DNA from: Mobula hypostoma
Taxonomy: Eukaryota
Assembly (NCBI RefSeq): GCF_963921235.1
Contig: NC_086108.1
Coordinates: 930,001 to 994,000 of the forward strand
Direction: 5' to 3'
Length of the DNA: 64,000 bases
The notes under the pieces were generated by a model that was given only the letters and a program-made list of their open reading frames with translations, had not been told where the DNA came from and did no database searches. This document shows, piece after piece, positions 2,023 through 48,442 of this stretch. Made by a program: the position numbers and the translations under genes. Position 1 is the stretch's first letter. Each line of letters begins with the position of its first letter.

Positions 2023-2096
2023 GGACGAAGGTCTCGTCGCCAGCGGAGAGAATTCAGAGAGAAGCGCTTGAAGGGGAGAAAAATCAGTCCACCCAG
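2023..2096 (+). CDS. CLASRP: CLASRP exon, GRRSRRQRREFREKRLKGRKISPP(S)
   Basis: Acceptor ttctttgcag|, donor ag|gtaccc; 74 nt, phase 0 to 2, in frame with both neighbours. Confidence 0.96.
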
Positions 2097-3590
2097 GTAC
2101 CCTGTGTTTAAACTCAGCTCTTTGCTATCTATGGTTTTAAAACACTTTCTTAATCTTGACCACTCTTTGTCAGGGTGACGCTGTACTGTTGATGTCAGAT
2201 TAAGGAAACTCCGTTAATTTCTACTGCACCTACTGTGAGGAGCTCTATGTCACAAATGCAATCAAGTGCTTCTATACTCCATGGAATATGGCAGCCCAAC
2301 TTGTGCATCTCAGTTTGCTGTAAGCAGCTGCCTGTGAATAGCCTGGTGGTCAGGGCTGATGCTGTGTTGGGACCTTTCACTTTCAGCTGAGAAGGGAGTT
2401 GTGGGCCTCAGTTTCACATCTCTGATCATAAAACCATAAGACATAGGAGCAGGATTAGGCTATACAGCCCACCAAGTCTGCTCCACCATTCATGGCTGAC
2501 TTACTTTCCCTCTCAACTCCATCCTCCTGCTTTCTTCCCGTAAGCTTTGACATTCGTACTGCTGAAGAACCTATCAACCTCTCCCTTATGTATACCCAAT
2601 GACTTGACTTCCACTTCCTTTTGTGGCAATGAATTCCGTGGATTTACCACCCTCTGAGTAAAGAAACTTCTCCTCATCCGTGTTCTAAAGGGACGTCCCT
2701 GTATTCTTAGCCTGTGTGCTCTGGTCCTAGATTCTCCCATTAGTTGAAAAATCCTCTTCATGTCCACTCTGTCAAATATTGAAAGGCCAAGATAGATTTA
2801 AATGAGATCACTTCTCATTCTAAGCTCTAGTGAGTACAGGCCTAGAGCCATCAAACACTCCTCATTCCTGGGATAATTCTCCTGAACCTCCTGAGCACCT
2901 CCCCAATGCCAGCACATCCTTTCTTAGATAAGAGGCCCAAAACTGTTCACAATACTCCAAATGTGGTCTGAACCCTCAGCATTACATCGTGCACACTAGC
3001 CTGTTCGAGTCTCTGATCTACATCTTGAACCCTAATTCTGCTCCTATCCCTTATGATCTTAAATCTCACCACTAGCTCTTCCCACCATTAAGTACATTTA
3101 CAAAGAGTGCTGCCACAAGAAAGCAGCAGCCACCATCAAGGTCTCCATCATCCAGGCCATGCTCTCTTTTCGCTACTACCATTGTGCAGGAGGTACAGGA
3201 GCCTCAGGTCCCACACCACCAGGTTCAGGAACAGTTATTACCCCTCAACCATCAGGCTCCTGAACCAGTGTGGATAACTTCACTCACCACAACAGTGAAT
3301 TGATTCCATAGCCTACAGACTGTCTCACTTTCAAGGACTCCACAACTCATGTTCTCATTATTACTTAGTTACTTTTTTATCTTTTGCACATTGGTTGTTA
3401 TTTGTGTTTTTCATAAATTCTATTGTATTTCTTTATTTTTCTGTAAATGCCTGTAAGAAAATGAATTTCAAAGTATTATCTAGTATAGTTTCAAACAACA
3501 GGAATTCTGCAGATGCTGGAAATTCAAGCAACACACATCAAAGTTGCTGGTGAACGCAGCAGGCCAGGCAGCATCTGTAGGAAGAGGTGC

Positions 3591-3626
3591 AGTCGACGTT
3601 TCAGGCCGAGACCCTTCGTCAGGACT
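3591..3626 (-). ncRNA. Minimal type I hammerhead ribozyme motif
   Basis: Reverse complement reads agtc-CTGACGA-agggtctcggcct-GAAAC-GTC-gact. Catalytic core intact, stem I agtc/gact, palindromic stem III ACGT. Confidence 0.7.
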
Positions 3627-4121
3627 AACTGAAGGAAGAGTGAGTAAGGGATTTGAAAGTTGGAGGGGGAGGGATGGAGCCAAGAGCTGGACAGGTGATT
3701 GGCAAAAGGGATACAAGAGGATCATGGGACAGGAGGTCCGGGAAGAAAGACGGGGGGGGGGGACCCAGAGGATGGGCAAGAGGTATATTCAGAGGGACAG
3801 AGGAAGAAAAAGGAGAGTGAGAGAAAGAATGTGTGCATAAAAATACCCCATCTGTTACTTATTTTTATGCACACATTCTTTCTTTCACTCTCCTTTTTCT
3901 CCCTCTGTCCCTCTGAATATACCTCTTGCCCATCCTCTGGGTCCCCCCCCCCCCCCGTCTTTCTTCCCGGACCTCCTGTCCCATGATCCTCTCGTATCCC
4001 CTTTTGCCTATCACCTGTCCAGCTCTTGGCTCCATCCCTCCCCCTCCTGTCTTCTCCTATCATTTTGGATCTCCCCCTCCCCCTCCAACTTTCAAATCCC
4101 TTACTCACTCTTCCTTCAGTT

Positions 4122-4157
4122 AGTCCTGACGAAGGGTCTCGGCCTGAAACGTCGACT
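4122..4157 (+). ncRNA. Minimal type I hammerhead ribozyme motif (sense to CLASRP pre-mRNA)
   Basis: agtc-CTGACGA-agggtctcggcct-GAAAC-GTC-gact; predicted cleavage after GTC at 4153. Confidence 0.72.
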
Positions 4158-4244
4158 GCACCTCTTCCTACAGATGCTGCCTGGTCTGCTGCGTTCACCA
4201 GCAACTTTGATGTGTGTTGCTTGATCTAGTATAGTTTGATTGTT

Positions 4245-4750: not shown

Positions 4751-4792
4751 TTATGCTAGGAGAGACAGCCCAACTTATGACCCATATAAAAG
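4751..4792 (+). CDS. CLASRP: CLASRP exon, YARRDSPTYDPYK(R)
   Basis: Acceptor tctgtttcag|, donor ag|gtaatt; 42 nt, phase 2 to 2; conserved RRDSPTYDPY motif. Confidence 0.96.
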
Positions 4793-8519: not shown

Positions 8520-8975
8520 GATAGCCTCCAAACTAATGGCATGAACATCGATTTCTTGAACTTTCAGTAATGCCCCGCCGCCTCCTTCACCAGTCCCCAT
8601 CCTCCTTTCCTTCTCTCACCTTATCTCCTTGCCTGCCCATCGCCTCCCTCTGGTGCTCTTCCCCCCTTTTCTTTCTTTCATGGCCTTCTATCCCCACCTA
8701 TCAGACTCCCCGTTTAAAGCTCTGTATCTCTTTCACCAATCAACTTCCCAGCTGCTTACTTCATCCCTGCACCTCCCGTTTTCACCTATCACCTTGAGTT
8801 CTCTCTTCCTTCCCCCACCTTTTCAATCTACTCCTTATCTTTTTTTTCTCCAGTCCTGCTGAAGGGTCTCGGCCCGAATCGTCGACTGTACTTTTTTCCA
8901 TAGATGCTGCCTGGCCTGCTGAGTTCCTCCAGCGCTTTGTGTGTGTTGCTCGGATTTCCAGCATCTGCAGATTTT
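8520..8975 (+). mobile_element. Penelope-like 3' fragment with degenerate hammerhead motif
   Basis: End of GIY-YIG coding (GMNIDF), pyrimidine-rich UTR, cagtcctgctgaagggtctcggcccgaatcgtcgactg at 8851-8888, then cagcatctgcaga tail. Inserted in a Rex1 fragment. Related pieces at about 9630-9890(-), 17150-17225(-), 23000-23345(-), 27925-28015(-), 31430-31530(+). Confidence 0.75.
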
Positions 8976-10314
8976 CTCTTTCTTTGCATCGCTGTCTGGT
9001 ATGGGGTGTGGGGGAAACAACTGCACAGGACTGAAATAAGCTGCAGAGAGGTATAAACTTGGTCAGTTCTGTTATGACAATAAAGTATAAAGTAAAGTAT
9101 AAGTATGAGCACTAGCCTCCGCAGAATCCAGGACACCTTCATGGAGTGATGTCTCAAAAACAAGCGGCATCCATCATTAAGGGCCCCCATCGCCCACGTT
9201 CTCATTGTTACCAACAGAGGGGAGGGACAGGAGCCTGAAGGCACACACTCAAACAATTCAGGAACAGCTTCTTCCCCTCTGCCATCCAATTTCTGACCGG
9301 ACAATGAATCCGTGAACACTACCTCACTAATTTGCTTTCGCTCTTTGTACTGCTTATTTAACATTTTTAATATATACTGTAATTTGCAGTTTTTATTATT
9401 ATGTATTGCATTGTACTGATACTACATAACAACAAATTTTACGACATATGCCGCTGATATTAAACCTGATACTGATTCTGAATCTGGTCCAATCCTGACT
9501 CGTGTGTGTGGAGTTTGTATGCTCTACCCATGATCCTGTGGCAGGTCCAGCTTCTCTCATGTCCCAAGTTGTCCCTCGTATGTAAATAATGGATAGAATC
9601 CAGGCAAAATTAAAGGGAAACATAAATAATGAGAGACTGCAGATGCTGGAAATCCAGAGCGATACACACAAACCGCTGATGGAACTCAGCAGGTCAGGCT
9701 CAGAATAAAGAGTCAACGTTTCGAACTGAGACTCATCCTCAGGACTGGAAAGGAAGGGGGAGTAGTTCAATCTGGCAGGATATATGTGACACACACAAAA
9801 TGGTAGAGGAACTCAACAGGTCAGGAAGCATCTATATAAATGAATAAACAGTCAACGTTTTGGGCTGAGTTCCTTAAAAGCAATGTTGGGGGAAATGAAA
9901 TGGGATTAGTGTGGATGGGTGCTTGATGGTCAGAATGGACCTGACGGGCCAAACTGCCTGTTTCCATATGGTATCACTTGACACCTCTCCTGTTTGATCA
10001 GGAATGCACTGTTCTGTGCTATAGTACAATTTCACAGTAACTGCACGCCTCTCGATATTACTCAGACTTCATGATGATGAACAGGTGACTTTTGATGTTC
10101 TAAATGACTCTTAATAGCAGCCTAAACCTTCCCTCTCAAATAGCCCTCCATTTTTCTATCATCCATGTGCCTAACTAATGTGTCTGCACTACAGGGGGTT
10201 TTATGCCATGAAGCCTTACCTTTGACTGAGGGGTCTGTGAACCTGCTCTTATGTATCCGGCAGTGCGTTCCATGCACCGACTGCTCTCTGTGTAAAAGAA
10301 AATATACCTCTCAC

Positions 10315-10529
10315 GTCAACACACACAAGATGCTGGAGGAACTCAGCAGGTCAGGCAGCATCTATGGAAATAAACAGGTAGTCAATTTCTCAGCCCTGAA
10401 GAGGGGTCTTGGCCAAAACATCGACTGCTTATTCACTTCCATAAATGCAGCCTGACCTGCTGAATTCCTCCAGAATATTGAATGTGTTGCTCTGGATTTC
10501 CAACAACTGCTGACTTCCTGGTGTTTACG
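10315..10529. mobile_element. Older Penelope pLTR hairpin insertion
   Basis: Inverted arms around a degenerate hammerhead; TSD atatacctctcac (10302-10314) / atttacctctcac (10530-10542). Confidence 0.7.
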
Positions 10530-10784
10530 ATTTACCTCTCACTACCCCCATACTTTCCTCCAGTCACCTTAACATAACGCCCTTTCATATTAGCCATTTC
10601 TGCCTTGGGGAAGAGTCTTTGGCTGTCCACTCGATTCTCCTGAGTGTTGAGGAATTGAGTTAACTCTTTGAATTAGATCAGTCTGCTATTAAACCTAATT
10701 TCCCAGTTGTGGATCTATCCACAGTGCTTGAGTGATCATAGTCCGATGTAACGAGTTGTCCTGTGGCGTTTGCTGATGTTCTAG

Positions 10785-12079: not shown

Positions 12080-13200
12080 AGTTCAGTATAAACAGATTTG
12101 GTAAATGCATTTAACTGTCATGTGATGGAAAAGTATAGTGATTATACTCACATTTATACAGATGGTGTGAAGGAACCTGAAACAGGAGTGATAGGGTTTG
12201 GGGTGGTAATACCAGCAAAAGAAATTGGAATCAGCAGAAGAACATCTAATAAGTTAGGAGTGTTTACAGTGGAGATGCTGGCGGTGTTGGTTGCGTTGCA
12301 ATGGGTGCAGAAAGCCAGACAAGTCAAAGCATTGATATGTTCAGATTCATCCTCAGTTCTAGCAAGTTTAAGGTCTTTTCACACAAACAGTCGGCAAGAT
12401 GTACTTTATGAAGTCCTTCAGTTAGTTACAAGAATTGCAAATCAGGGAGGTCAGGTAAAATTTCTATGGGTTCCAGCACATGTAGGGGTGAAGGGGAATG
12501 AGAGGGTGGATGAGTTGGCAAAGAGGGCGTTAAAGAAAGAAAATGTGGAAATGCACATTAGTATCAGTAAAGCAGAGGTTAAGTGTGTAATCTCGGAAAA
12601 AGTCAACCGAATGTGGCAAGAAAGATGGGACGGGAGGGGAAAGGGAGGCATTTATATCAAATACAAAAGAGTGTTGCAGGTACGAGGGTAGGTAATGGAA
12701 ACAGAAGAGAGGAAATTGTGTGGACTAGGTTAAGGCTGGGGCATTGAGCATTAAACAAAACATTGAAAATGATAGGGAAACACCAGACAGGATTGTGTGA
12801 GGAATGTCAGGAAGAGGAGTCAGTAGAACATCTAGTTTTGTGTTGCAGGAAGTATGGGATACAGAGAGAGATGATGAGAAATAAATTAAGGGAGTTGGGG
12901 ATGCAGGAATTCACATTAAAAGGGTTGCTGGGCATGGGTGAGAGAGCACAAGTCCGGGTATTTTTAGCATTTTTAAGGGGTACAGGGGTTTTTTATAGAA
13001 TATGGCGAATAAACAGGAATAGGATACTAGGGTGGTCAAAGATGGGAGGGTGAAGTGTAGGTTTGTGTGTGTGTGTGTGTGATTGGGTGAAGGGATTTAG
13101 AATGTATGTCTAGTGCACATTCTGGAGCAGAGGGTGGCGGTAATGCACCATTAAACTGGATGCCAACCGCCGTAAAACAAGATACAGACAGACAGACACA
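12080..13200 (+). mobile_element. I-group (Nimb/I-like) LINE 3' part with RNase H and CCHC knuckle
   Basis: ORF 12098..12691 has RNase H motifs YTDG, EM.AV..AL, SDS.SVL, WVPAHVGVKGNE.VD. Then TRLRLGH and CEEC...ESVEHLVLCC; (caga)n tail. One frameshift and one stop. Confidence 0.85.
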
Positions 13201-17000: not shown

Positions 17001-19738
17001 TCGTAATAGCCATTTCAACCCTGGGAAAAAGCCTCTTGCTATCCACACGATCAATGCCTCTCATCATCTTATACACCTGTATACGGTCACCTTTCATCCT
17101 CCATCGCTCCAAGGCAATGGGACAGTCTGCAGTTCAACTTCTAAACCTAAGAGGTTCTGCATATGCTGGGAATCTTAATGCTGGAGGAACTCAGCAGGTC
17201 AGAGAGTATCTATGGAGAGGAATGGTTATAGCCCAAAGGAAGGAAGTGGGCAAAATCTAGAATAAGTGTTTGATGGCTCTGGACCTGTACTCACTGGAAT
17301 TGAGAAGAATAAGGGGTGGCCTCATTGAAACCTATCGAATGATGAAAGGCCTCGATAAAGTGGATGTGACGAGGATTTTTCCTATACTGGGGAGTCTAAG
17401 ACCAGAGGACACAGCGTCAGAATAGAGGGGTGTCCCTTTGGAACAAAGATGAGGAATTTCTTTAGCCAGAGAGTGGTGAATCTGTGGAATTCCTACCACA
17501 GATGAGGAGGCCAAGTCATGTGGTATATTCATTAGTTATCGTGTGTTATCTGTTCTACTGTGCTTTAGATTCTGGTTTGGAGAAATATTGTCTTGTTTCT
17601 ATATACATTATAACCATATAACAATTACAGCACGGAGACAGGCCATCTCGGCCCTTCTAGTCCGTGCCAAACTCTTACTCTCACCTAGTCCCACCGACCT
17701 GCACTCAGCCCATAACCCTCCATTCCTTTCCTGTCCATATAGCTATCCAATTTAACTTTAAATGACAACATCAAACCTGCCTCAACCACTTCTGCTGGAA
17801 GCTCGTTCCACACAGCTACCACTCTCTGAGTAAAGAAGTTCCCCCTCATGTTACCCCTAAACTTTTGCCCTTTAACTCTCAACTCATGTCCTCTTGTTTG
17901 AATCTCAATGGAAAAGGCCTATCCACGTCAACTCTATCTATCCCCCTCATAATTTTAAATACCTCTATCAAGTCCCCCCTCAACCTTCTACGTTCCAAAG
18001 AATAAAGACCCAACTTGTTTAACCTTTCTCTGTAACTTAGGAGATGAAACCCAGGTAACATTCTAGTAAATCTTCTCTGTACTCTCTCAATTTTGTTGAC
18101 ATCTTTCCTATAATTCGGTGACCAGAACTGTACACAATACTTCAAATTTGGCCTTACCAATGCCTTGTACAATTTTAACATTACATCCCAACTCCTATAC
18201 TCAATGCTCAAATTTATAAAGGCCAGTATACCAAAAGCTTTCTTCACCACCCTATCCACATGAGATTCCACCTTCAGGGAACTATGCACCATTATTCCTA
18301 GATCCCTCTGTTCTACTGCATTCTTCAATGCCCTGCCATTTACCATGTATGTCCTAATTTGATTAGCCCTACCAAAACGTAGCACCTCACATTTATCAGC
18401 ATTAAACTCCATCTGCCATCTTTCAGCCCGCTCTTCTAACTGGCCTAAATGTCTCTGCAAGCTTTGAAAACCTACTTCATTATCCACAACTCCACCTATC
18501 TTAGTATCATCTGCATACTTACTAATCCAATTTACCACCCCATCATCCAGATCATTAATGTATATGACAAACAGCATTGGACCCAGTACAGATCCCTGAG
18601 GCACACCACTAGTCACCGGCCTCCAATCTGACAAACAGTTATCCACCACTACTCTCTGGCATCTCCCATTCAGCCACTGCTGAATCCATTTTACTACTTC
18701 AATATTAATACCTAATGATTGAACCTTCCTAACTAACCTTCCGTGTGGAACCTTGTCAAAGGCCTTACTGAAGTCCATATAGACAACATCCACTACTTTA
18801 CCCTCGTCAACTTTCCTAGTAGCCTCTTCAAGAAATTCAATAAGATTTGTCAAACATGACTTTCCACGTACAAATCCATTTTGACTGTTCCTAATCAGAC
18901 CCTGTCTATCCAGATGATTATATATACCATCTCTAAGAATACTTTCCATCAATTTACCCACCACTGACGTCAAACTCACAGGCCGATAATTGCTAGGTTT
19001 AGTCTTAGAACCCTTTTTAAACAATGGAACAACATGAGCAATACGCCAATCCTCCAGCACCATCCCCGTTTCTAATGACATTTGAAATATTTCTGTCAGA
19101 GCCCCTGCTATTTCTACACTAATTTCCCTCAAGGTCCTAGGGAATATCCTGTCAGGACCCAGAGACTTATCCACTTTTATATTCCTTAAAAGCGCCAGTA
19201 CTTCCTCTTCTTTAATCATCATTGTTTCTATTACTTCCCTACCTGTTTCCCTTACGTTACACAATTCAATATCCTTCTCTTTAGTGAATACCGAAGAAAA
19301 GAAATTGTTCAAAATCTCCCTCATCTCTTTCGGCTCCACATATAGCCGTCCACTCTGATTCTCTAAGGGACCAATTTTATCCCTCACTATCCTTATGCTA
19401 TTAATATAACTGTAGAAACCCTTTGGATTTAGTTTTACCTTACTTGCCAAAGCAACCTCTTATCTTCTTTTAGCTTTTTTAATTCCTTTCTTAAGATTCT
19501 TTTTACATTCTTTATATTCCTCGAGCACCTCATTTACTCCAATTTGCCTATATTTATTGTAGATCTCTCTTTTTTTCCGAACCAAGTTTCCAATATCCCT
19601 TGAAAACCACGGCTCTCTCAAACTTTTAACCTTTCCTTTCAACCTAACAGGAACATAAAGATTCTGTACCCTCAAAATTTCACCTTTAAATGACCTCCAT
19701 TTCTCTATTACATACATCCTTCCCATAAAACAAATTGT

Positions 19739-20655
19739 AAGCACAAAATAATCTGCAGATGCTGGGGTCAAAGCAACACTCACGACAAGCTGGAGGAACT
19801 CAGCAGGTCGGGCAGCGTCCGTGGAAAAGATCGGTTGATGTTTCGGGCCGGAACCCTTCGTCAGGACTGTAGGGGGAAGGGGCAGAGGCCCTATAAAGCA
19901 GGTGGGGGGAGGGTGGGAAGGAGAAGGCTGGTAGGTTCCAGGTGAAAAACCAGTAAGGGGAAAGATAAAGGGCTGGGGGAAGGGAGGCAGGGAGGTGATA
20001 GGCAGGAAAGGTGAAGAAAGAATAGGGGAAAACACAATGGGTAGTAGAAGGAGGCGGAACCAAGAGGGAGGTGGTAGGCAGCTGGGGGAGGGGGCAGAGC
20101 GACATAGGGATAGAGGAAGGGAGGGGGAGGGAATTACCGGAAGTTGGAGAATTCTATGTTCATACCAAGGGGCTGGAGACTACCTAGATGATATATGAGG
20201 TGTTGCTCCTCCAACCTGAGTTTAGCCTCATCATGGCAGTAGAGGAGGCCATGTATGGACATATCTGAATGGGAGTGGGAAGCAGAGTTGAAGTGGGTGG
20301 CTACTGGGAGATCCTGTCTGTATTGACGGATGGAGCGGAGGTGCTCGACGAAGCGGTCCCCCAATCTGCGTCAGGTTTCACTGATGTAGAGGAGACCGCA
20401 CTGGATGCAATAGATGACCCCAATAGACTCACAAGTGAAGTGTTGTCTCACCTGGAAGTACTGTTTGGGGCCCTGAATGGTGGCAAGAGAGGAGGTGTAG
20501 GGACAGCTGTAGCACTTGCGCTTACAGAGATAAGTGCCAGATGGGAGATCCGTAGGGAGGGACGTGTGGACCAGGGAGTCGTGGAGGGACCGATCCCTGC
20601 GGAAGGCAGAGAGGGGTGGAGAGGGAAAGATGTGCTTAGTGGCACATCGTAGTTG
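19739..20655 (-). mobile_element. 5'-truncated Penelope-like element (GIY-YIG endonuclease end, 3' UTR/pLTR with hammerhead motif)
   Basis: FTCESIGVIYCIQCGLLYISET and DRFVEHLRSIR...VATHFNS...LEEQHLIYHLGSLQPLGMNIEF; ctgacgaagggttccggcccgaaacatc on minus at about 19837-19864; 15-bp TSD cataaaacaaattgt at 19724-19738 and 20656-20670. Confidence 0.92.
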
Positions 20656-22755: not shown

Positions 22756-25698
22756 CAAGCCTGTGCAGTCCTGCCTCTCTTAACTCCGATGATGAGAAGA
22801 TATGATTATAAGATTATATGGTTATATATGTTATGTACATGTACAGTATATAGTTAAATGACAATAAACGTGAGTTAAAGCAGAGGCTGATAGATTCTTG
22901 ATTGGTCAGGGCATGAAGGGATATGGCAAGAAGGCAGGAGGGAGATGGAGTCACCAGATGGACCAAGCAGACTCATTCTGCTCCTGTATCTTTGCTCTAA
23001 TAAGAAGGTAGAGAGAAGGAGTGGAGTACAAGCTGGCAGGTGATAGCTGAGGCCAGGTGAGAGAGAAGGTGAGTGGATGGGTGGGAAGGGAGAGTGAAAT
23101 AAGCTGGGAGGTGATAGGTGGAAGAATTGGGAATGGAAACAGAGAAGGGGTAGGGGAGAATTTACTAGGAATTAGAGAAATTGATATTCATGCCATCAGG
23201 TTGGAGGCTACCCAGATGGAACATGTAATGGTGCTCCTGCAACCTGCATTTGGCCTCATAGTGGCAGTAGAGGAGGCCATGAACAGACATGATAGAATGG
23301 GAATGGAAAGTCGAACTGAAATGAGTGACCACTGGGAAATCTTGCAGTGGACAGTTTTACTTAAACGTATGCATTATGATTAAAATGGGGCAATGTGACT
23401 TCAGTAGGATTGTGTGCAATGATGGCATAAAAAGTTTTTCAGGAGCTTGGGTAATAAAGGAAAGTATAAGGAGGTTGAACTTGTTGTCTTTGGAAGCAGA
23501 GTTTGAGATGATCCAGCTGAGATTTTTAAGCTTATAAATGAAAGTGGTATAATATTCAATGGACCAGTATAGCACAGGACAGACATTTCAGCCCATAAAG
23601 ATGTACCAAATTAATTAACCTAATGATCCCTAATTACACTAATGTCTTCTGTCTGCATGTGGTCCATAAGACTCCATTCTCTATATATTCCTGTGCTTAT
23701 CTAAGAGCCTCGTGTTTCTGAATTGCTGAGTGTGTGTCTTCAGGCTCCTGTACCTCCTTCTGGATGGCAGCAGTGAGAAGAAGGCATATCCTGGGTGGTG
23801 GGGGGTGCTTAATGATGGATGCCACCTTTCTGAGGTATCGCTACCTGAAGACGTCCTTGACACTACGGAGTTCTGGAGCTGACTAAGTTTACAAATGTGT
23901 GCAGTTTATTTTGATCCCATGCAGTAGACCCCTCTCCCCATACCAGATGGTGATGCAGCCAGTTAGAATGTTCTCCACTGTTCATCCGTAGAAATTTGGG
24001 AGTGACTGATGATACACCAAATCTCCTCAAACTCCTAATGAAATGTAGTCACTGTTGTGCTTTCTTTGTAGCTGCATCAATATGTTGGGTCCAGGTTATG
24101 TCCTCAGAGATGTTAATGTGCAGGAACTTGAAATTGCTGACTCTTTCCACTTCTGATCCCTCTATGAGGACTGGTGTGTGTTCCCTCACTTTACCCTTTC
24201 TGAAGTCCACTATCTTTCTGACATCTGAGTCCAATCAAACAGCTGATCTATCTCGCTCTGGTATGCTATGGAAGTCTAGCTTGCCTGTAGAATCAAAGCA
24301 TTAAAGACAGCACCTGGCAATAGGGAATGGGAAGATCCCACAAATAGTTTACAGATGTGGGTCAATACAAGGCCTACTGGGAGATGTACTGACATGTACT
24401 GAGGTCTCATGCAGCTGAATAGCTTTGCTATGCTCTAGAAAGTATCAGGCAGTATTCCAGTTGTTGTAAGGTATTGGGTCCAAAGCTGGAGTGAGGGGTT
24501 TTGAGAGAGATGCGGAGGGTGGAAATTTCGAACAGAAATGAGGAGGAATTTCTTTAACCAGAGGATAGTGATCTGTGGAACTCTTTGTCACAGACAACTC
24601 TGGAGGCTAAATCATTGAGTATATTTAAGGCAGAGGTTGGTAGCTCTTGATTAGTCAGGGCATTATAGGTTATGGGGAAAAGCAGGAGAGTGGGGTTTAG
24701 AAGGACAGTGTTCCTAGTTTTAAAGAAAGGTCCCTAAAACATGGCGATGAATCAAATGGATTTAATTCTGGAATAGTTTATTTTATGTAAGATTGAAGGA
24801 GTCAGGCCTGCAGCTGAAACATTTCTCTAATCTTAGTCCGAACACCTCAGGTTCATTTGTTTGGTTTAAGGAGTGCATTCTCCAGGGACCGCTGCTGTGT
24901 TGTCTGAGTTGCAAATGGATACTGAATTGGGTGTTGTCTTGTGCTACATCTTGAATGCTTTTCTACATTAGAGCTGCAAATGGTGTTATGTAGAAATGGG
25001 CAAGTTTGAACATGCAGAAACCCAGCCAACGATTGCAGCATCAAAGCTGTTAACCTGAAGACATGATGTTAAACTGAGAGCCTATTGCAGGGATGTGAGA
25101 CTGCTGGACACGGCTTCAGAAGAGAGCAAAGGAGTTCTCCACAGTATAAAAGTAGAAAGTGTCGTCAAAACATCCAGGAGTGATAAATAGTTAACATTTC
25201 AGACTGATGATCTACCATCAGCTCTATCTTTACAACAGCTGTTCCCAACCTTTTTTATGCCATGGACCAATACCATTAAGCAAGAGGTTCGTGGACTTCA
25301 GGTCAGGAACCCTTGCTTCAGGGGATGAATATTGGCTGTGATACAATGCTCCACACATCTAAAACCTTCCATGAATCCTTTGTCATCTTCATGCACCTCT
25401 AGAGGAGTCAGAATGTGCTGCCATTTAATGTAACCTTGCTTGACCTAAGAAATGTCACCTTCAAGAAAGCAAGAGTTTCTCAGTGGAGTGGAGTGTCGGA
25501 GTGGACAAAGTCACTGACTTATCTTGGCTCAAACCAAATTCAATTTCAAACCCAGGCGAGGTGTTCTTGTTTCTCTCGATCTCCTTGTGTGTGTAATATT
25601 GTGCGTTTGTGGGTTTCAGCATACGAAAGCCTCAACAGATTCAGTTTTGGTGCCGGCAGACTATCGTTTATACTTTACTATGTTTCTGTATTCCTCAG

Positions 25699-27396: not shown

Positions 27397-27870
27397 TTGT
27401 GGTGAGTGAAGTTATCCACACTGGCTCAGGAGCCTGATGGTTGTGGGGTAACAACTGTTCCTGAACCTGGTGGTGTGGGACCTGAGGCTCATTGTGGTGA
27501 GTGAAGTTATCCACACTGGTTCAGGAGCCTGATGGTTGTGGGGTAATAACTGTTCCTGAACCTGGTGGTGTGGGACCTGAGGCTCATTGTGATGAGTGAA
27601 GTTATCCACACTGGTTCAGGAGTCTGATGGTTGTGGGGTAATAACTGTTCCTGAACCTGGTGGTGTGGGACCTGAGGCTCATTGTGATGAGTGAAGTTAT
27701 CCACACTGGTTCAGGAGCCTGATGGTTGTGGGGTAATAACTGTTCCTGAACCTGGTGGTGTGGGACCTGAGGCTCATTGTGGTGAGTGAAGTTATCCACA
27801 CTGGTTCAGGAGCCTGATGGTTGCAGGGTAATACCTGTTCCTGAAGCTGGTGATGTAGGACGTAAGGGTA
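27397..27870. repeat. 95-bp tandem repeat (4 near-identical units plus 1 diverged) derived from a Rex1 3' end
   Basis: Units start at 27397, 27492, 27587, 27682, 27777; no unique spacers; encodes HTTRFRNSYYPTTIRLLN on minus. Confidence 0.95.
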
Positions 27871-28502
27871 CTGTACCTCCTTCCTTATGGTAGCAGTGAG
27901 AAGAGAGCATGCCGTGGATGGATCAAAATAAAAAAATGTTGGAGCAACTCAGCAGGTCAGGCAGCATCTATGGAAATGAATAAATAGTGGACGTTTCAGT
28001 CGAGACCCTGTTGATGAATGCTGCTTTCTTATGGTATTGCTGCTTGTAGATGTGCTCAATGGTGGGAAGGGCTTTTCCTGTGATGGACTGGGCTGTATCC
28101 ACCTCGTTCATGGGCACTGGTGTTTCCATATTAGGCTGAGATGCATCCGGACAAAATTATAAGTAATAGCTGAAACAAATTTATGTCTGTAATAATAAGA
28201 TAAACCACCTTAGATGTGCAAACTAGTTATAAGGGCAACATTCACCAGGAACTATCACCTTGTGTACTGAGCTGTTAACAGGCACTTAGATTGGGTGTTA
28301 AACTGATGGTCGACCTTGAATGCTCTCCTGCATTATGGGTGAGAAGCCAGTGTCATTGCAGATGGAACCTTCTGGTATCAGAGCCACTGGTTGCACCAGC
28401 AGGAGGTGTTAACTTTCACTTGCGACTTTCACCTAAAGTTAACAGAAAGCGAGATTTGAAGTCATCAAGGCTTTTCAGAGAATAAATATTGAGATGCTTC
28501 TA

Positions 28503-29129: not shown

Positions 29130-30597
29130 CAGTCTGTCCGTTTGTATAGGGCCTATCAGCGGAGTCAAAAGAGCTGTATGAAGAAGAGGTGTTTCTCGCA
29201 GGTCTGAGGCAGTCATTTAAAAAGAGAGCTTTGAGGGCGTTTGTCCATTGTATAGGAGTCAACAGAGCTCTATGAACTAAATAAAAGTACAGAAGCGATA
29301 AGTGGAGTGGCCATTTTTGGGAGTAGGCCAGTGACAAGAGTAGAAACGACAGGCTTTAGCTCAAAGGAGGCTTTGGCTCTATGTAAAGTGTCTGTTAGGA
29401 TTTCTTTTTATCTTTTTTTCCCCTCTATTACTGTACTATTTAAGTGGCTGTGGTGTTGGAGAACTGGAAGACCTAGAGTCTCCTGGGGAACTACATCTGT
29501 GTGAAGTGCATCCAACTGTAGCTCCTTGAAGACTGTGTTAGGGATCTGGAGCAACAACTGAATGACGTTTGGCTTGTTAGATAGAGTGAGGAGATAATTG
29601 ATCAAAGTTTCAGGTAAGTAGTCACCCCGAAGTTGCAGGAGACAAGTAGCTGGGTGACCGTCAGGTGAAATGGAAATAGGCAGTTAGAGCAGAGTACGCA
29701 TGTGACCATTACCCTCAAAAACAAGTATACCGCTTTGGATACTGTTGTGGGGGATGACCACCTGGGAGAACGCCACGGTGATTGGTTACAGGCACTGAGG
29801 TATGATGTTGTGGCCATCACTGAACCGTGGCTGAAGGATGGTCGTAGTTGGGAGCTGAATGTCCAAGGTTACACGTTGTATCAGAGGGACAGGAAGGTAG
29901 GCAGAGTGGGTAGTGTGGCTCTACTGGTAAAGAATGGTATCAAATCAGTAGAAAGATGTGACATAGGATTGGAAGATGTTGAATCCTTGTGGGTTGAGTT
30001 AAGATACTGCAAGGGTAAAAGGACGTTGATGGCAGTTATATACAGGCCTCCCAACGGTAGCTGGGAGGTGGACCACAGATTGCAACAGGAAATAGAAAAG
30101 GCGAGTCAAAAGGGCAATATATGGTAGTGATAGGTGATTTTAACATGCAGTTTGATTGGGAAAATCAGGTTGGAAATGGATCTCGAGAGTGAGTTTGTTG
30201 AATGGCTAAGAGATGTTTTTTTAGAGCAGTTTGTTGTTGAGCCTACTAGGGGATCAGCTATACTGGAGTGGGTGTTATGTAATGAACTGGAGGTGATTAG
30301 GGAGCTTAAGGTAAAAGAACCCTTAGGAACCAGTGACCACAATATGATTGAGGCAACACACATCAAAGTTGCTGGTGAACGCAGTAGGCCAGGCAGCATC
30401 TCTAGGAAGAGGTACAGTCGACGTTTCAGGCCGAGACCCTTCGTCAGGGTCTCGGCGTGAAACGTCGACTGTACCTCTTCCTAGAGATGCTTCCTGGCCT
30501 GCTGTGTTCACCAGCAACTTTGATGTGTGTTGCTTGAATTTCCAGCATCTGCAGAATTCCTGTTGTTTACAATATGATTGAGTTCAACTTGAAATTG
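29130..30597 (+). mobile_element. Internally deleted 5' part of a CR1 LINE (5' UTR, ORF1 fragment, APE fragment)
   Basis: ITLKNKYTALDTVVGDD (ORF1) fused to YDVVAITEPWL...YRPP...SDHN (APE); interrupted by a Penelope hairpin. Confidence 0.85.
30353..30568. mobile_element. 216-bp Penelope pLTR hairpin insertion with 14-bp TSD
   Basis: TSD acaatatgattgag at 30339-30352 and 30569-30582; arms nearly identical to those at 3492-4223; fold-back point lies inside the hammerhead core. Confidence 0.9.
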
Positions 30598-39486: not shown

Positions 39487-40098
39487 TGAGGGGTGATTGC
39501 TAAGTTCGTGGCCTAAGGTAGATGGAGTCAATTTTAGAAAACCTAGCACATACATTTTTCAACATAGTACCCTCCTACATATACATACTTAGTCCAGCGG
39601 TCATGGAGTATACAGATCCCTTCTTTGTAGAAGTGGTCCACAGCAGGAGTGATTGATAAGTAAGGTAGAAGGAGATGAGTTATTAACTTCAAACTTTCTG
39701 CATTATCACTCAGAGTTGAACCGCACGTGCATGTAACGAGAGTGTCTTGGATCTCCAGGTGGTCCACAATAGGGATGATTGATAAGTTCGTGCCCTAAGG
39801 TAGAAGGAGATGAGTTATACCGCTTTCGTTACATGTACGTGCAGTTCAGCTCTTTGAGTGAAAATGCAGAAAGTTTGAAGTTAATAACTCATCTCCTTCT
39901 ACCTTAGGCCACGAGCTTATCAATCACCCCTGCTGTGGACCACTTCTGGAGGTCCAAGATGCCAGCTTCTACAAAGAAGGGATCCGTATGCTTCACGACC
40001 ACTGGACTAAGTGTCTAAATGTAGGAAAAATGAATGTGCTAGGTTTTCTAAACTTGACTCCTTCTACCTTAGGCCACGAACTTATCAATCACCCCTTG
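39487..40098. mobile_element. Mariner-derived fold-back MITE with nested TIR copies, TA TSD
   Basis: TIR gggtgattgataagttcgtggcctaaggtagaaggag at both ends and three more times inside. Arms encode FYKEGI..LHD.WTK..., a mariner transposase C-terminus. TA at 39485-39486 and 39099+1000 (40099-40100). Confidence 0.85.
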
Positions 40099-45900: not shown

Positions 45901-48205
45901 CGCTCTCAATGGAAAAAGCCTATCCACATCAACTCTATCAATTCCCCTCATAATTTTAAATACCTCTGTCAAGTCCATCCCCCCTCAACCTTCTACGCTC
46001 CAAAGAACAAAGACACAATTTGTTCAACCTTTCTCTGTAACTTAGGTGCTGGAATCCAGGTAACATTCTAGTAAATCTTCTCTGTACTCTCTCTATTTTG
46101 TTGACATCTTTCCTATAATTCGGTGACCAGAACTGTACACAATACTCCAAATTTGGCCTTACCAATGCCTTGTACAATTTTAACATTACATCCCAACTCC
46201 TATACTCAATGCTCTGATTTATAAAGGCCAGCATACCAAAAGCTTTCTTCACCACCCTATCCACATGAGATTCCACCTTCAGGGAATTATGCACCATTAT
46301 TCCTAGATCCCTCTGTTCTACTGCATTCTTCAATGCCCTGCCATTTACCATGTATGTCCTTTTTTAATTAGTCCTACCAAAATGTAGCACCTCACATTTA
46401 TCAGCATTAAACTCCATCTGCCATCTTTCAGCCCACTCTTCTAACTGGCCTAAATCTCTCTGCAAGCTTTGAAAACCTACTTCATTATCCACAGCACCAC
46501 CTATCTTAGTATTATCTGCATATTTACTAATCCAATTTACCACCCCATCATCCAGATCATTAATGTATATGACAAACAACATTGGACCCAGTACAGATCC
46601 CTGAGGCACACCACTAGACACCGTCCTCCAATCTGATAAACAGTTATCCACCACTACTCCCTGGCGTCTCCCATCCAGCCACTGTTGAATCCATTTTACT
46701 ACTTCAATATTAATACCTAACGATTGAACCTTCCTAACTAACCTTGCGTGTGGAACCTTGTCAAAGGCCTTACTGAAGTCCATAGACACAACATCCACTG
46801 CTGTACCCTCGTCAACTTTCCTAGTAGCCTCTTCAAAAAATTCAATAAGACTTGTCAAACATGACCTTCCACGCACAAATCCATGTTGACTGTTCCTAAC
46901 CAGATGATTATATATACCATCTCTAAGAATATTTCAGTTAATTTACCCACCATTGACGTCAAACTCACAGGCCGATAATTGCTAGGTTTACTCTTAGAAC
47001 CCTTTTTAAACAATGGAACAACATGAGCAATACGCCAATCCTCCGGCACCATCTCCGTTTCTAATGACATTTGAAATATTTCTGTCAGAGCCCCTGCTAG
47101 TTCTACACTAATTTCCCTCAAGGTCCTAGGGAATATCCTGTCAGGACCCAGAGACTTATCCACTTTTATAATCCTTAAAAGCGCCAGTACTTCCTCTTCT
47201 TTAATCATCATAGTTTCCATAGCTTCCCTACCTGTTTCCCTTACCTTACACAATTCAATATCCTTCTTAGTGAATACCGAAGAAAAGAAATTGTTCAAAA
47301 TCTCCCCCATCTCTTTTGGTTCCACACATAGCTGTCCACTCTGATTCTCTAAGGGACCAATTTTATCCCTCACTATCCTTTTGCTATTAATATAACTGTA
47401 GAAACCCTTTGGATTTATTTTCACCTTACTTGCCAAAGCAACCTCGTATCTTTTAGCTTTTCTAATTTCTTTCTTAAGATTCTTTTTACATTCTTTATAT
47501 TCCTCGAGCACCTCAATTAGTCCGTGCTGCCTATATTTATTGTAGATCTCTCTCTTTTCCGAACCAAGTTTCCAATATCCCTTGAAAAACATGGCTCTTT
47601 AACCTTTCCTTTCAACCTAACAGTAACATAAAGATTCTGTACCCTCAAAATTTCACCTTTAAATGACCTCCATTTCTCTATTACATCCTTCCCGTAAAAC
47701 AAATTGTCCCAATCCACTCCTTCTAAGTCCTTTCGCATCTCCTCAAAGTTAACCTTTCTCCAATCAAAAATCCCAACTCTGGGTCCAGACCTATCCTTCT
47801 CTATAATTATATTGAAACTAATAGCATTGTGATCACTGGAGCCGAAGTGCTCCCCAACACATACCTCTGTCACAGACCTATCTCATTCCCGAACAGGAGA
47901 TCCAACACTGCCCTTTCTCTGGTTGGTATCTCTATGTATTGCTGCAAAAAACCATCCTGCACACATTTCACAAACTCCAAACCAAAAAGCCCTTTTACCA
48001 TATGGGCTTCCCAACCTATGTGTGGAAAATTAAAATCTCCCACAATCACAGCCTTCCCTTTTGAGCTTCAGGGCCAGACTGAGTTCCAGAAGCTTACCCT
48101 CCCCCCCTGCAGCAGTGCACAAAACGAAGTTAGGGGGACGGTCACAGGGGTGCTCTCCACTATCTGACGTTCCCCCTTCCCTCTCCTGGCAGTCACCCAT
48201 TTATC
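42980..48205 (-). mobile_element. Old deleted CR1 (42980-45600 and 48050-48205) with a younger CR1 nested at 45601-48050
   Basis: Host has RT and ORF1-esterase remnants (LGDSIVRG). The nested copy has an (atatggtt)n tail and closely matches the 17610-21000 element. Confidence 0.88.
45020..45131. repeat. About 56-bp tandem duplication inside CR1
   Basis: catcccc(c)tgccatattagattgaactacgccaaacagctctagtaaacctgaccac occurs twice. Confidence 0.9.
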
Positions 48206-48227: not shown

Positions 48228-48442
48228 GCCAGAGCAATACACACAAAATACCGGAGGAACTCAGCAGGTCAGGCAGCACCTATGGAGAGGAATCAACGGT
48301 TGGTGTTTTGGGACAAAATCCTTCATCACGCCCCAAACATGACTGTTTATTCCTCTCCATAGCTGGTGCCTGACCTGCCGAGTTCCTCCAGCATTTTGTG
48401 TGTTTCTCTGGATTTCCAGCATCTGCAGAATCTCTTGTGTTA
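48228..48442. mobile_element. Older Penelope pLTR hairpin insertion
   Basis: Inverted arms, tail on the right, fold-back inside a decayed hammerhead. TSD-like gcagtattgatg (48216-48227) / gcattgttgatg (48443-48454). Confidence 0.65.

Follow-up and report, generated by a model that had tools for sequence, protein, structure and literature searches.

A front-truncated, folded-back Penelope-like copy in a CLASRP intron of the ray Mobula hypostoma

How does a hairpin without coding sequence, carrying a hammerhead motif in each arm, come to lie between two exons of a gene? The question is raised by a 732-bp insert in a 64,000-nucleotide stretch of the Mobula hypostoma genome (assembly GCF_963921235.1, contig NC_086108.1, forward-strand positions 930,001 to 994,000), referred to below as the window. 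An earlier note, made from the letters alone, had seen in it a young Penelope insertion of a recently active, possibly non-autonomous family. The answer reached here is that the insert very probably consists of two head-to-head, 5′-truncated 3′ ends of a Neptune-type Penelope-like element (PLE) within one 14-bp target-site duplication (TSD), likely placed there in one integration by the element's own reverse transcriptase (RT) and GIY-YIG endonuclease and likely inert since. It is real but ordinary, a front-truncated, folded-back copy whose architecture and motif are already published.

The Insert and Its Intron

The host had been taken for a fish, and rightly: it is a cartilaginous one, and a window exon is 99% identical to CLASRP of Mobula birostris (P0160). 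Exact peptide matches to that protein run in order along the plus strand across the window. The insert falls between two of the matching exons; it is therefore intronic and would belong to the CLASRP pre-mRNA. The features of the locus are the following.

2023-2095 (plus strand): CLASRP exon upstream of the insert, exact match to P0160 residues 262-285, AG/GT borders
3478-3491: left copy of the TSD, AT-rich, 14/14 identical to the right copy
3492-3524 (minus strand): one-sided 33-nt tail, the outer 3′ end of the element, without counterpart in the right arm
3525-3845 (minus strand): left, tail-bearing arm, a 5′-truncated 3′ UTR/pLTR with a 39-nt deletion after 3661, from the arm alignment
3844-3845: 2-nt microhomology (TA) at the fold-back junction, common to both arms; the plus-strand family match starts at 3844, and protein P0004 (below) aligns from 3844
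3846-3859 (plus strand): loop of 14 nt, formed by additional 5′ element sequence that belongs to the right arm and shares its frame with the P0004 read-through
3860-4223 (plus strand): right, tail-less arm, a pyrimidine-rich 3′ UTR/pLTR ending at the 3′ foot of a predicted stem-loop, from alignment and fold
4224-4237: right copy of the TSD, 14/14 identical to the left copy
4751-4792 (plus strand): CLASRP exon downstream of the insert, exact match to P0160 residues 286-300, AG/GT borders

The insert proper (3492-4223) contains no ORF and is bounded by two identical 14-mers, so the coordinates, the length, and the perfect TSD given in the earlier note all stood. How readily would such a match arise by chance? 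When 3000 pairs of 25-nt windows were drawn at random with comparable spacing, they shared no word longer than 10. The 33-nt tail was also as described, with no partner in the right arm. The stem-loop predicted at the end of the right arm comes from a minus-strand fold of 3492-3560 (z -2.06).

The arms had been called near-identical, which holds for 316 of 321 aligned sites (98.4%), but a larger difference had been missed. Besides five substitutions, the arms differ by three indels: a single nucleotide, 3 nt in a G-run, and a 39-nt segment (4048-4086 of the right arm) absent from the left. Because family contigs of all four public runs compared carry this segment (loose ends before 3662), the difference is a deletion in the left arm. 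It is flanked by 12-nt direct repeats, visible in the right arm at 4036-4047 and 4075-4086. The 14-nt spacer had been measured correctly; it proves to be element sequence running on into the right arm, not foreign filler. Four of the five substitutions are C>T on the sense strand, and an editing signal was considered and rejected, that strand being 39% C and 13% G.

Attempts to find the unoccupied state gave no match. Empty-site reconstruction within the window yielded no paralogous repeat spanning the target site, and a query of one arm plus 26 nt of the other returned neither an empty allele nor a contig across the fold-back junction among the 15 of 915 joints and 32 of about 280,800 pieces listed.

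The Parent Element

The arms take their identity from P0004, a partial, read-through gene model of M. hypostoma (XP_062918402.1) with an RT YIDD motif, a CX4CxxC linker, and a GIY-YIG core, the last matched by Pfam at an E value of 4.6e-4, just under the curated cut-off. P0004 reads through its stop position into a peptide that matches window positions 3844-3942 at 30 of 33 residues, and the arm starts 18 nt 3′ of that stop codon position. The arm is therefore the UTR behind an RT plus GIY-YIG ORF, which bears out its description as a Penelope-like pLTR. Family contigs agree: 5′ of 3844 they run into what looks like the end of an ORF, similar to that of the GIY-YIG copy in the window (72 contigs with loose ends before 3844 in run X1 and 12 in X10). 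The search for an autonomous parent that the earlier note had proposed thus succeeded in part, P0004 tying RT and GIY-YIG to the UTR, but the intact ORF of the insert's subfamily was not recovered, and the 64-kb window holds no full-length copy.

Relatives show the same domain arrangement. A protein search with the ORF end of the window copy at 19739-20655 returned 10 proteins, 9 of them named as ray or shark. RVT_1 and GIY-YIG occur in one ORF in five of the seven 750-950-aa relatives scanned (E ≤ 0.01), and two relatives, P0013 and P0015, score above the RVT_1 cut-off and match GIY-YIG. Of 159 fetched proteins scanned, 130 have the GIY-YIG CC core, and 117 of those also have a CX2-5CxxC linker, a motif present both in P0004 and in the window's own copy. 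The two cysteines between GIY and YIG (CCHH motif) are likewise found in P0004 and its relatives and are partly lost in the window copy. Some annotated proteins deserve separate mention: P0001, P0002, and P0011, Hypanus sabinus models named “divergent protein kinase domain 1C” and “mucin-2,” are largely or partly Penelope-like ORF and are likely annotation errors or exonised copies.

To which clade does the element belong? In the parts of PMC8557442 consulted, a CX2-5CxxC motif in the RT-EN linker marks Neptune and Nematis and is absent from Penelope/Poseidon. By this motif, the element is classed as an EN+ PLE of Neptune/Nematis type, and a Penelope/Poseidon assignment was rejected on the same grounds. 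The choice of Neptune over Nematis is a probable one, made from the linker motif and from reports of Neptune in vertebrates rather than from an RT tree. Literature searches covering main texts found no paper on a ray or shark PLE hammerhead that treats this family, nor one on PLE twin priming or a PLE inversion mechanism that does. In the available part of PMC6155905, “shark” refers to shape only.

Hammerhead Motifs

Each arm carries one motif.

3591-3626 (minus strand): left-arm minimal type I hammerhead motif, with C3 at 3622 and a cleavage site predicted to follow 3595
4122-4157 (plus strand): right-arm motif of the same type; stem I is formed by 4122-4125/4154-4157 and the core by 4126-4132, with a bulged A at 4133; stem II (4134-4137/4142-4145) has a G.U closing pair at 10.1-11.1; G12-A15.1 at 4146-4149, ACGU at 4149-4152, C17 at 4153

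The intact core, 4-bp stem I, and ACGU “stem III” ascribed to both arms are all there, with stem III loopless and the cores (4126-4153, plus; 3595-3622, minus) identical. The features of an intact minimal hammerhead (min-HHR) are present: C3-A9, G12-A15.1, U16.1, H17, helices I and II, and the palindromic 15.2-16.2. The core pattern has three matches in the window against 0.04 expected. A stricter, full descriptor also has three, two of them in the insert, against none in 200 Markov-simulated windows; the third, at 9715-9742, is the sole passing copy outside the insert. Rfam, suggested earlier as a check, gave a different result, with no hammerhead at the insert at E ≤ 10, none at gathering score in the whole window, and only below-threshold matches to miRNA-type hairpins. 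The hammerhead assignment therefore rests on the descriptor and the literature. At the G.U pair at 10.1-11.1 of the insert copy, a C variant accounts for about 18-27% of contig depth. Across nine window copies, three of them cut at a junction, 83% of helix cells are paired and two of eight pairs show two-sided change, covariation that 70-212 of 500 shuffles reached as well. Of two pattern scans of JGI metagenomes, one gave 0 loci and the other 6; the six were rejected as relatives, since they share only the 21-nt pattern, and are taken as chance.

Do the motifs amount to a pair of opposed ribozymes, as had been claimed? There is a motif in each arm, but what faces it is its reverse complement. 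Any transcript of the insert has one sense motif and a full antisense partner, so the two cannot form an active dimer with each other. The antisense (left) arm would be transcribed first in the CLASRP pre-mRNA, and the sense motif is then predicted to pair with it fully. Both hammerheads are accordingly modelled as buried and inactive in a duplex of about 320 bp, not as a ribozyme pair. The predicted fold of the whole insert has -684 kcal/mol and is 90% paired. In an isolated 51-mer, stems I and II form with pair probabilities of 0.85-0.91 and 0.81-0.91, although the core is predicted to pair with cleavage-site bases; the probabilities fall below 0.01 in either whole arm and to 0.0 in the whole insert, all in models that leave aside proteins and tertiary contacts. 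For a dimer, the nearest-neighbour model, which ignores core contacts, puts the active fold at -11.1 kcal/mol against a minimum of -31.7 kcal/mol. The min-HHR motifs treated in the available part of PMC4209133 showed no cleavage as monomers and low cleavage as dimers.

Other Copies of the Family

The terminal unit of the element has 21 profile matches in the window. The hairpins other than the insert, and one older copy, are the following.

10315-10532 (wider span 10305-10542): third hairpin, TSD of at least 10 bp
19739-20655 (minus strand): older related copy with a broken GIY-YIG ORF end (20134-20655), 3′ UTR, decayed hammerhead, and tail; 15-bp TSD at 19724-19738/20656-20670
30353-30568 (30339-30582 with TSD): second hairpin, 216 bp, same subfamily, 93-96% identical to the insert, 14-bp TSD, 35-nt one-sided tail
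48229-48441: fourth hairpin, without a TSD under the search rule used

All four hairpins, the insert included, have the tail on one arm only, and three have a detectable TSD (14, 14, and at least 10 bp). Their arms are about 90 to 380 nt long, and in every case the two arm ends lie within about 5-20 nt of each other. Three hairpins turn inside the hammerhead, one of them (30353-30568) with a 3-nt microhomology and a 5-nt loop; the 732-bp insert turns about 280 nt upstream of it. Since the fold-back points differ, each hairpin is a separate truncation. All eight arms reach 5′ of the predicted scissile bond; running through the cleavage site, they point to RNA templates that were likely uncut.

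The older copy sits in a LINE whose paralog near 47690 has the target once, an empty site. At its 5′ end is a mini inversion of 7 bp (20629-20635/20642-20648) with a 6-nt loop. Pfam did not recognise GIY-YIG in this broken ORF end, and it was identified via homologues. A second Penelope-like GIY-YIG ORF-end fragment, 72% identical to P0004, lies at 23171-23344 (minus strand). A single-arm copy of another subfamily (8560-8985) seems to start at the last codons of the ORF and to run through hammerhead and tail, with a broken core. At 9625-9875, two terminal units stand in direct tandem, one containing the 9715-9742 descriptor match and the other cut inside the motif.

Abundance and Age

The family is very abundant. 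Run X1 has 198,898 contig records on a 986-bp stretch made of one arm and repeat-rich flank, a figure that is not a copy number. Summed depth in X1, usable for its shape only, rises from about 1.4e5 in the adjoining flank to 0.8-1.5e7 across the last 130 nt and has fallen to about 2e6 at the turn; in all four runs it drops from the 3′ end toward the 5′ end. The shape fits 5′-truncated retroposition; subfamilies sharing only the terminal 130 nt could also give the fall at about 3625. Many unrelated AT-rich flanks join the family exactly at 3492, in 183 contigs of X5 and 33 of X9, which makes the tail end a genuine terminus of the family. The status of X9 as an RNA run is a guess, so its contigs are not taken as evidence of transcription.

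The insert appears young relative to neighbouring copies, which does not imply present activity. Of its five arm substitutions, the left arm carries the derived state at two (the family letter stands at 94% in X1) and the right arm at two more, as judged from the 30-kb copy and P0004; one is ambiguous. This amounts to about 0.8% change per arm if the arms began identical. A pedigree of the epaulette shark gave 7e-10 changes per site per generation (CI 1.4-14.1e-10; PMC10587355, seen in part), at which rate 0.8% would take on the order of ten million generations, an estimate that borrows its rate from another order and assumes an identical start. With derived changes on both arms and slow chondrichthyan rates, no recent date follows, and the claim of recent activity is not upheld; the copy has likely been inert since it integrated.

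How the Hairpin May Have Formed

How PLE integration is completed is described as still undefined in PMC8557442, as far as its consulted parts go. The present reconstruction starts from what is read directly at the locus: the TSD, the one-sided tail, the arm as UTR behind an RT plus GIY-YIG ORF, the 2-nt microhomology, and a loop that is part of the tail-less arm. Two nicks with a stagger of 14 nt would have left two 3′ ends. Each end would then have primed cDNA on uncut element RNA, one at the end of the tail and the other 33 nt further in. The tail-less cDNA would have halted about 380 nt in, snapped back at the TA microhomology, and copied itself to yield a sense strand, which could have annealed to the tail-primed cDNA before repair sealed the gap. 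The 39-nt deletion between the 12-nt direct repeats may have arisen during copying or later, and the hammerheads would be passengers throughout.

Support for the opening steps comes from work in vitro on the anole Poseidon element (PMC11167929, seen in part), where both strands were nicked, two internal RT start sites bracketed the tail, and unprocessed RNA served as template; the element tested there belongs to Poseidon and not to Neptune. Snap-back itself is drawn from two clean junctions, with 2- and 3-nt microhomologies and short loops. Arms that end about 5-20 nt apart in all four hairpins are what a self-primed, stalled cDNA would leave. A strand that copied itself lacks the tail, so the tail calls for another round of priming, at the outer start site. 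If true, this reading of double priming and snap-back explains the tail, the inversion, and the TSD together.

Could the strands have met in another way? In a double-priming scheme akin to L1 twin priming, each nick would prime its own cDNA on a separate RNA copy, and microhomology annealing would join the two products end to end without any snap-back. This is a rather unlikely course, though it uses the same two start sites and accounts for the tail, the TSD, and the microhomology, and the anole protein is a predicted dimer (PMC11167929, seen in part). It would also suit a transversion between the arms at 3700, where the right-arm letter is a common variant (30% of X1 depth, 12-35% over the four runs); a single site is weak evidence, however, and the closeness of the arm ends in all four hairpins is left unexplained, whereas snap-back explains it. 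The head-to-head inversion might instead precede integration, made by self-priming on an antisense element transcript, as the consulted part of PMC3846280 proposes for palindromes at inverted junctions. That published reading gives the same polarity, but by itself it produces no tail on one arm, and initiation in vitro was on sense RNA (PMC11167929, consulted in part); it is improbable here.

The suggestion that a dedicated non-autonomous, ribozyme-tipped family moved as a unit, in the manner of a MITE or retrozyme, has in its favour the lack of coding sequence in the insert and the many contig records (198,898 in X1, again not copies); non-LTR retrozymes, too, are reported as PLE derivatives (bioRxiv 10.64898/2026.07.22.740005, seen in part). 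It is nonetheless very improbable. The start of the arm lies 18 nt 3′ of the parent's stop codon position, and beyond the fold-back point family contigs carry on with ordinary element sequence. The four hairpins turn at different places, whereas members of a family mobilised whole would all turn at one point; retrozymes, moreover, are direct tandem repeats, and the arms here are inverted. Palindromes are a known class of artefact, so a fold-back introduced in the library or the assembly was weighed too, the more so as no spanning contig appeared among the matches listed. An artefact is scarcely credible given the exact TSD, the five substitutions and three indels between arms that have each acquired derived changes, a tail that ends at the true family terminus, and the same anatomy at three other loci.

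For the family at large, double priming and snap-back lead to a more tentative proposal, which may well prove too broad: that double-nick priming (14-15-bp stagger, two internal starts) and snap-back at 1-3-nt microhomology, often inside an uncut hammerhead fold, have left a very large fossil record in ray genomes, and that the process also seeds introns, the present CLASRP intron among them, with dsRNA of about 320 bp that silences its own ribozyme.

Relation to Known Systems

An inverted 5′-truncated partner, an optional 30-40-bp tail, and a TSD are typical of PLEs in the consulted parts of PMC3846280 and PMC8557442, and the earlier description of an inverted pLTR partner lacking the short tail matches these insertions. 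The nearest likeness is Pen2a_Av of the rotifer Adineta vaga (PMC3846280), together with the scheme in Fig. 2 of PMC8557442: the inverted 5′-truncated partner stands at the 5′ end, the 30-40-bp tail is one-sided, and the TSD surrounds the unit. Pen2a_Av also shows microhomology-mediated internal deletion. The ray insert differs in that both halves are cut down to UTR, the host is a cartilaginous fish, and the family is very abundant; TSDs are 14-15 bp in the ray copies against 8-10 bp in the rotifer examples described there.

The motif resembles the min-HHRs of PMC4209133 in its core, helix I of 4-5 bp, unpaired base between 9 and 10.1, palindromic 15.2-16.2, and helix III without a loop. That paper also mentions cases in Schistosoma where two motifs lie on opposite strands with about 100-700 bp between them. 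The insert departs in its 4-bp helix II with G.U at 10.1-11.1, and the consulted part of that paper contains no ray example. PAc, a Poseidon element of Anolis carolinensis (Frangieh et al. 2024, PMC11167929), shares two internal start sites that define the tail, AT-rich targets, a hammerhead upstream of the start sites, and an uncut RNA template. It belongs to Penelope/Poseidon, whereas the ray family has the CX2-5CxxC linker of Neptune/Nematis, and the main text of the PAc paper leaves inverted insertions unexplained. Non-LTR retrozymes (bioRxiv 10.64898/2026.07.22.740005, seen in part), reported also from one chondrichthyan, are likewise PLE-derived and non-coding with a type I hammerhead. 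They form direct tandem arrays with same-sense ribozymes; the inverted arrangement of the ray unit leaves no tandem that could self-cleave, and a retrozyme identity was rejected for this reason.

What, then, does the insert offer? As a single locus it matters little, being one dead copy of an abundant family. As a clean specimen it is of more use: the polarity of the loop, the microhomology, the asymmetric tail, and the fact that the arms run through the cleavage site limit the ways in which PLE integration can finish. Its remaining value is a junction anatomy that favours two primed cDNAs joined by snap-back at 2-3-nt microhomology. The insert also carries the signature of two start sites, shown for a Poseidon element, over to a Neptune-type family. 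Such hairpins in introns are likely sources of long dsRNA in ray pre-mRNAs.

Surrounding Repeats

CLASRP exons (P0160 residues 252-621) span window positions 1-61484 on the plus strand, and LINEs crowd the introns, with an RT frame of 526 aa at 17882-19459 (minus strand) and an RNase H frame at 12092-12688 (plus strand). An inverted-repeat element of about 600 bp with nested internal repeats (39489-40096) is unrelated to the Penelope arm and looks like a non-autonomous DNA transposon. Finally, a tandem array with a unit of about 95 bp occurs at 27397-27920 and 3149-3292 and is nearly identical to part of the insert's left flank; its many contig joints that go back by 35-94 nt suggest that the repeat is prone to local tandem duplication.
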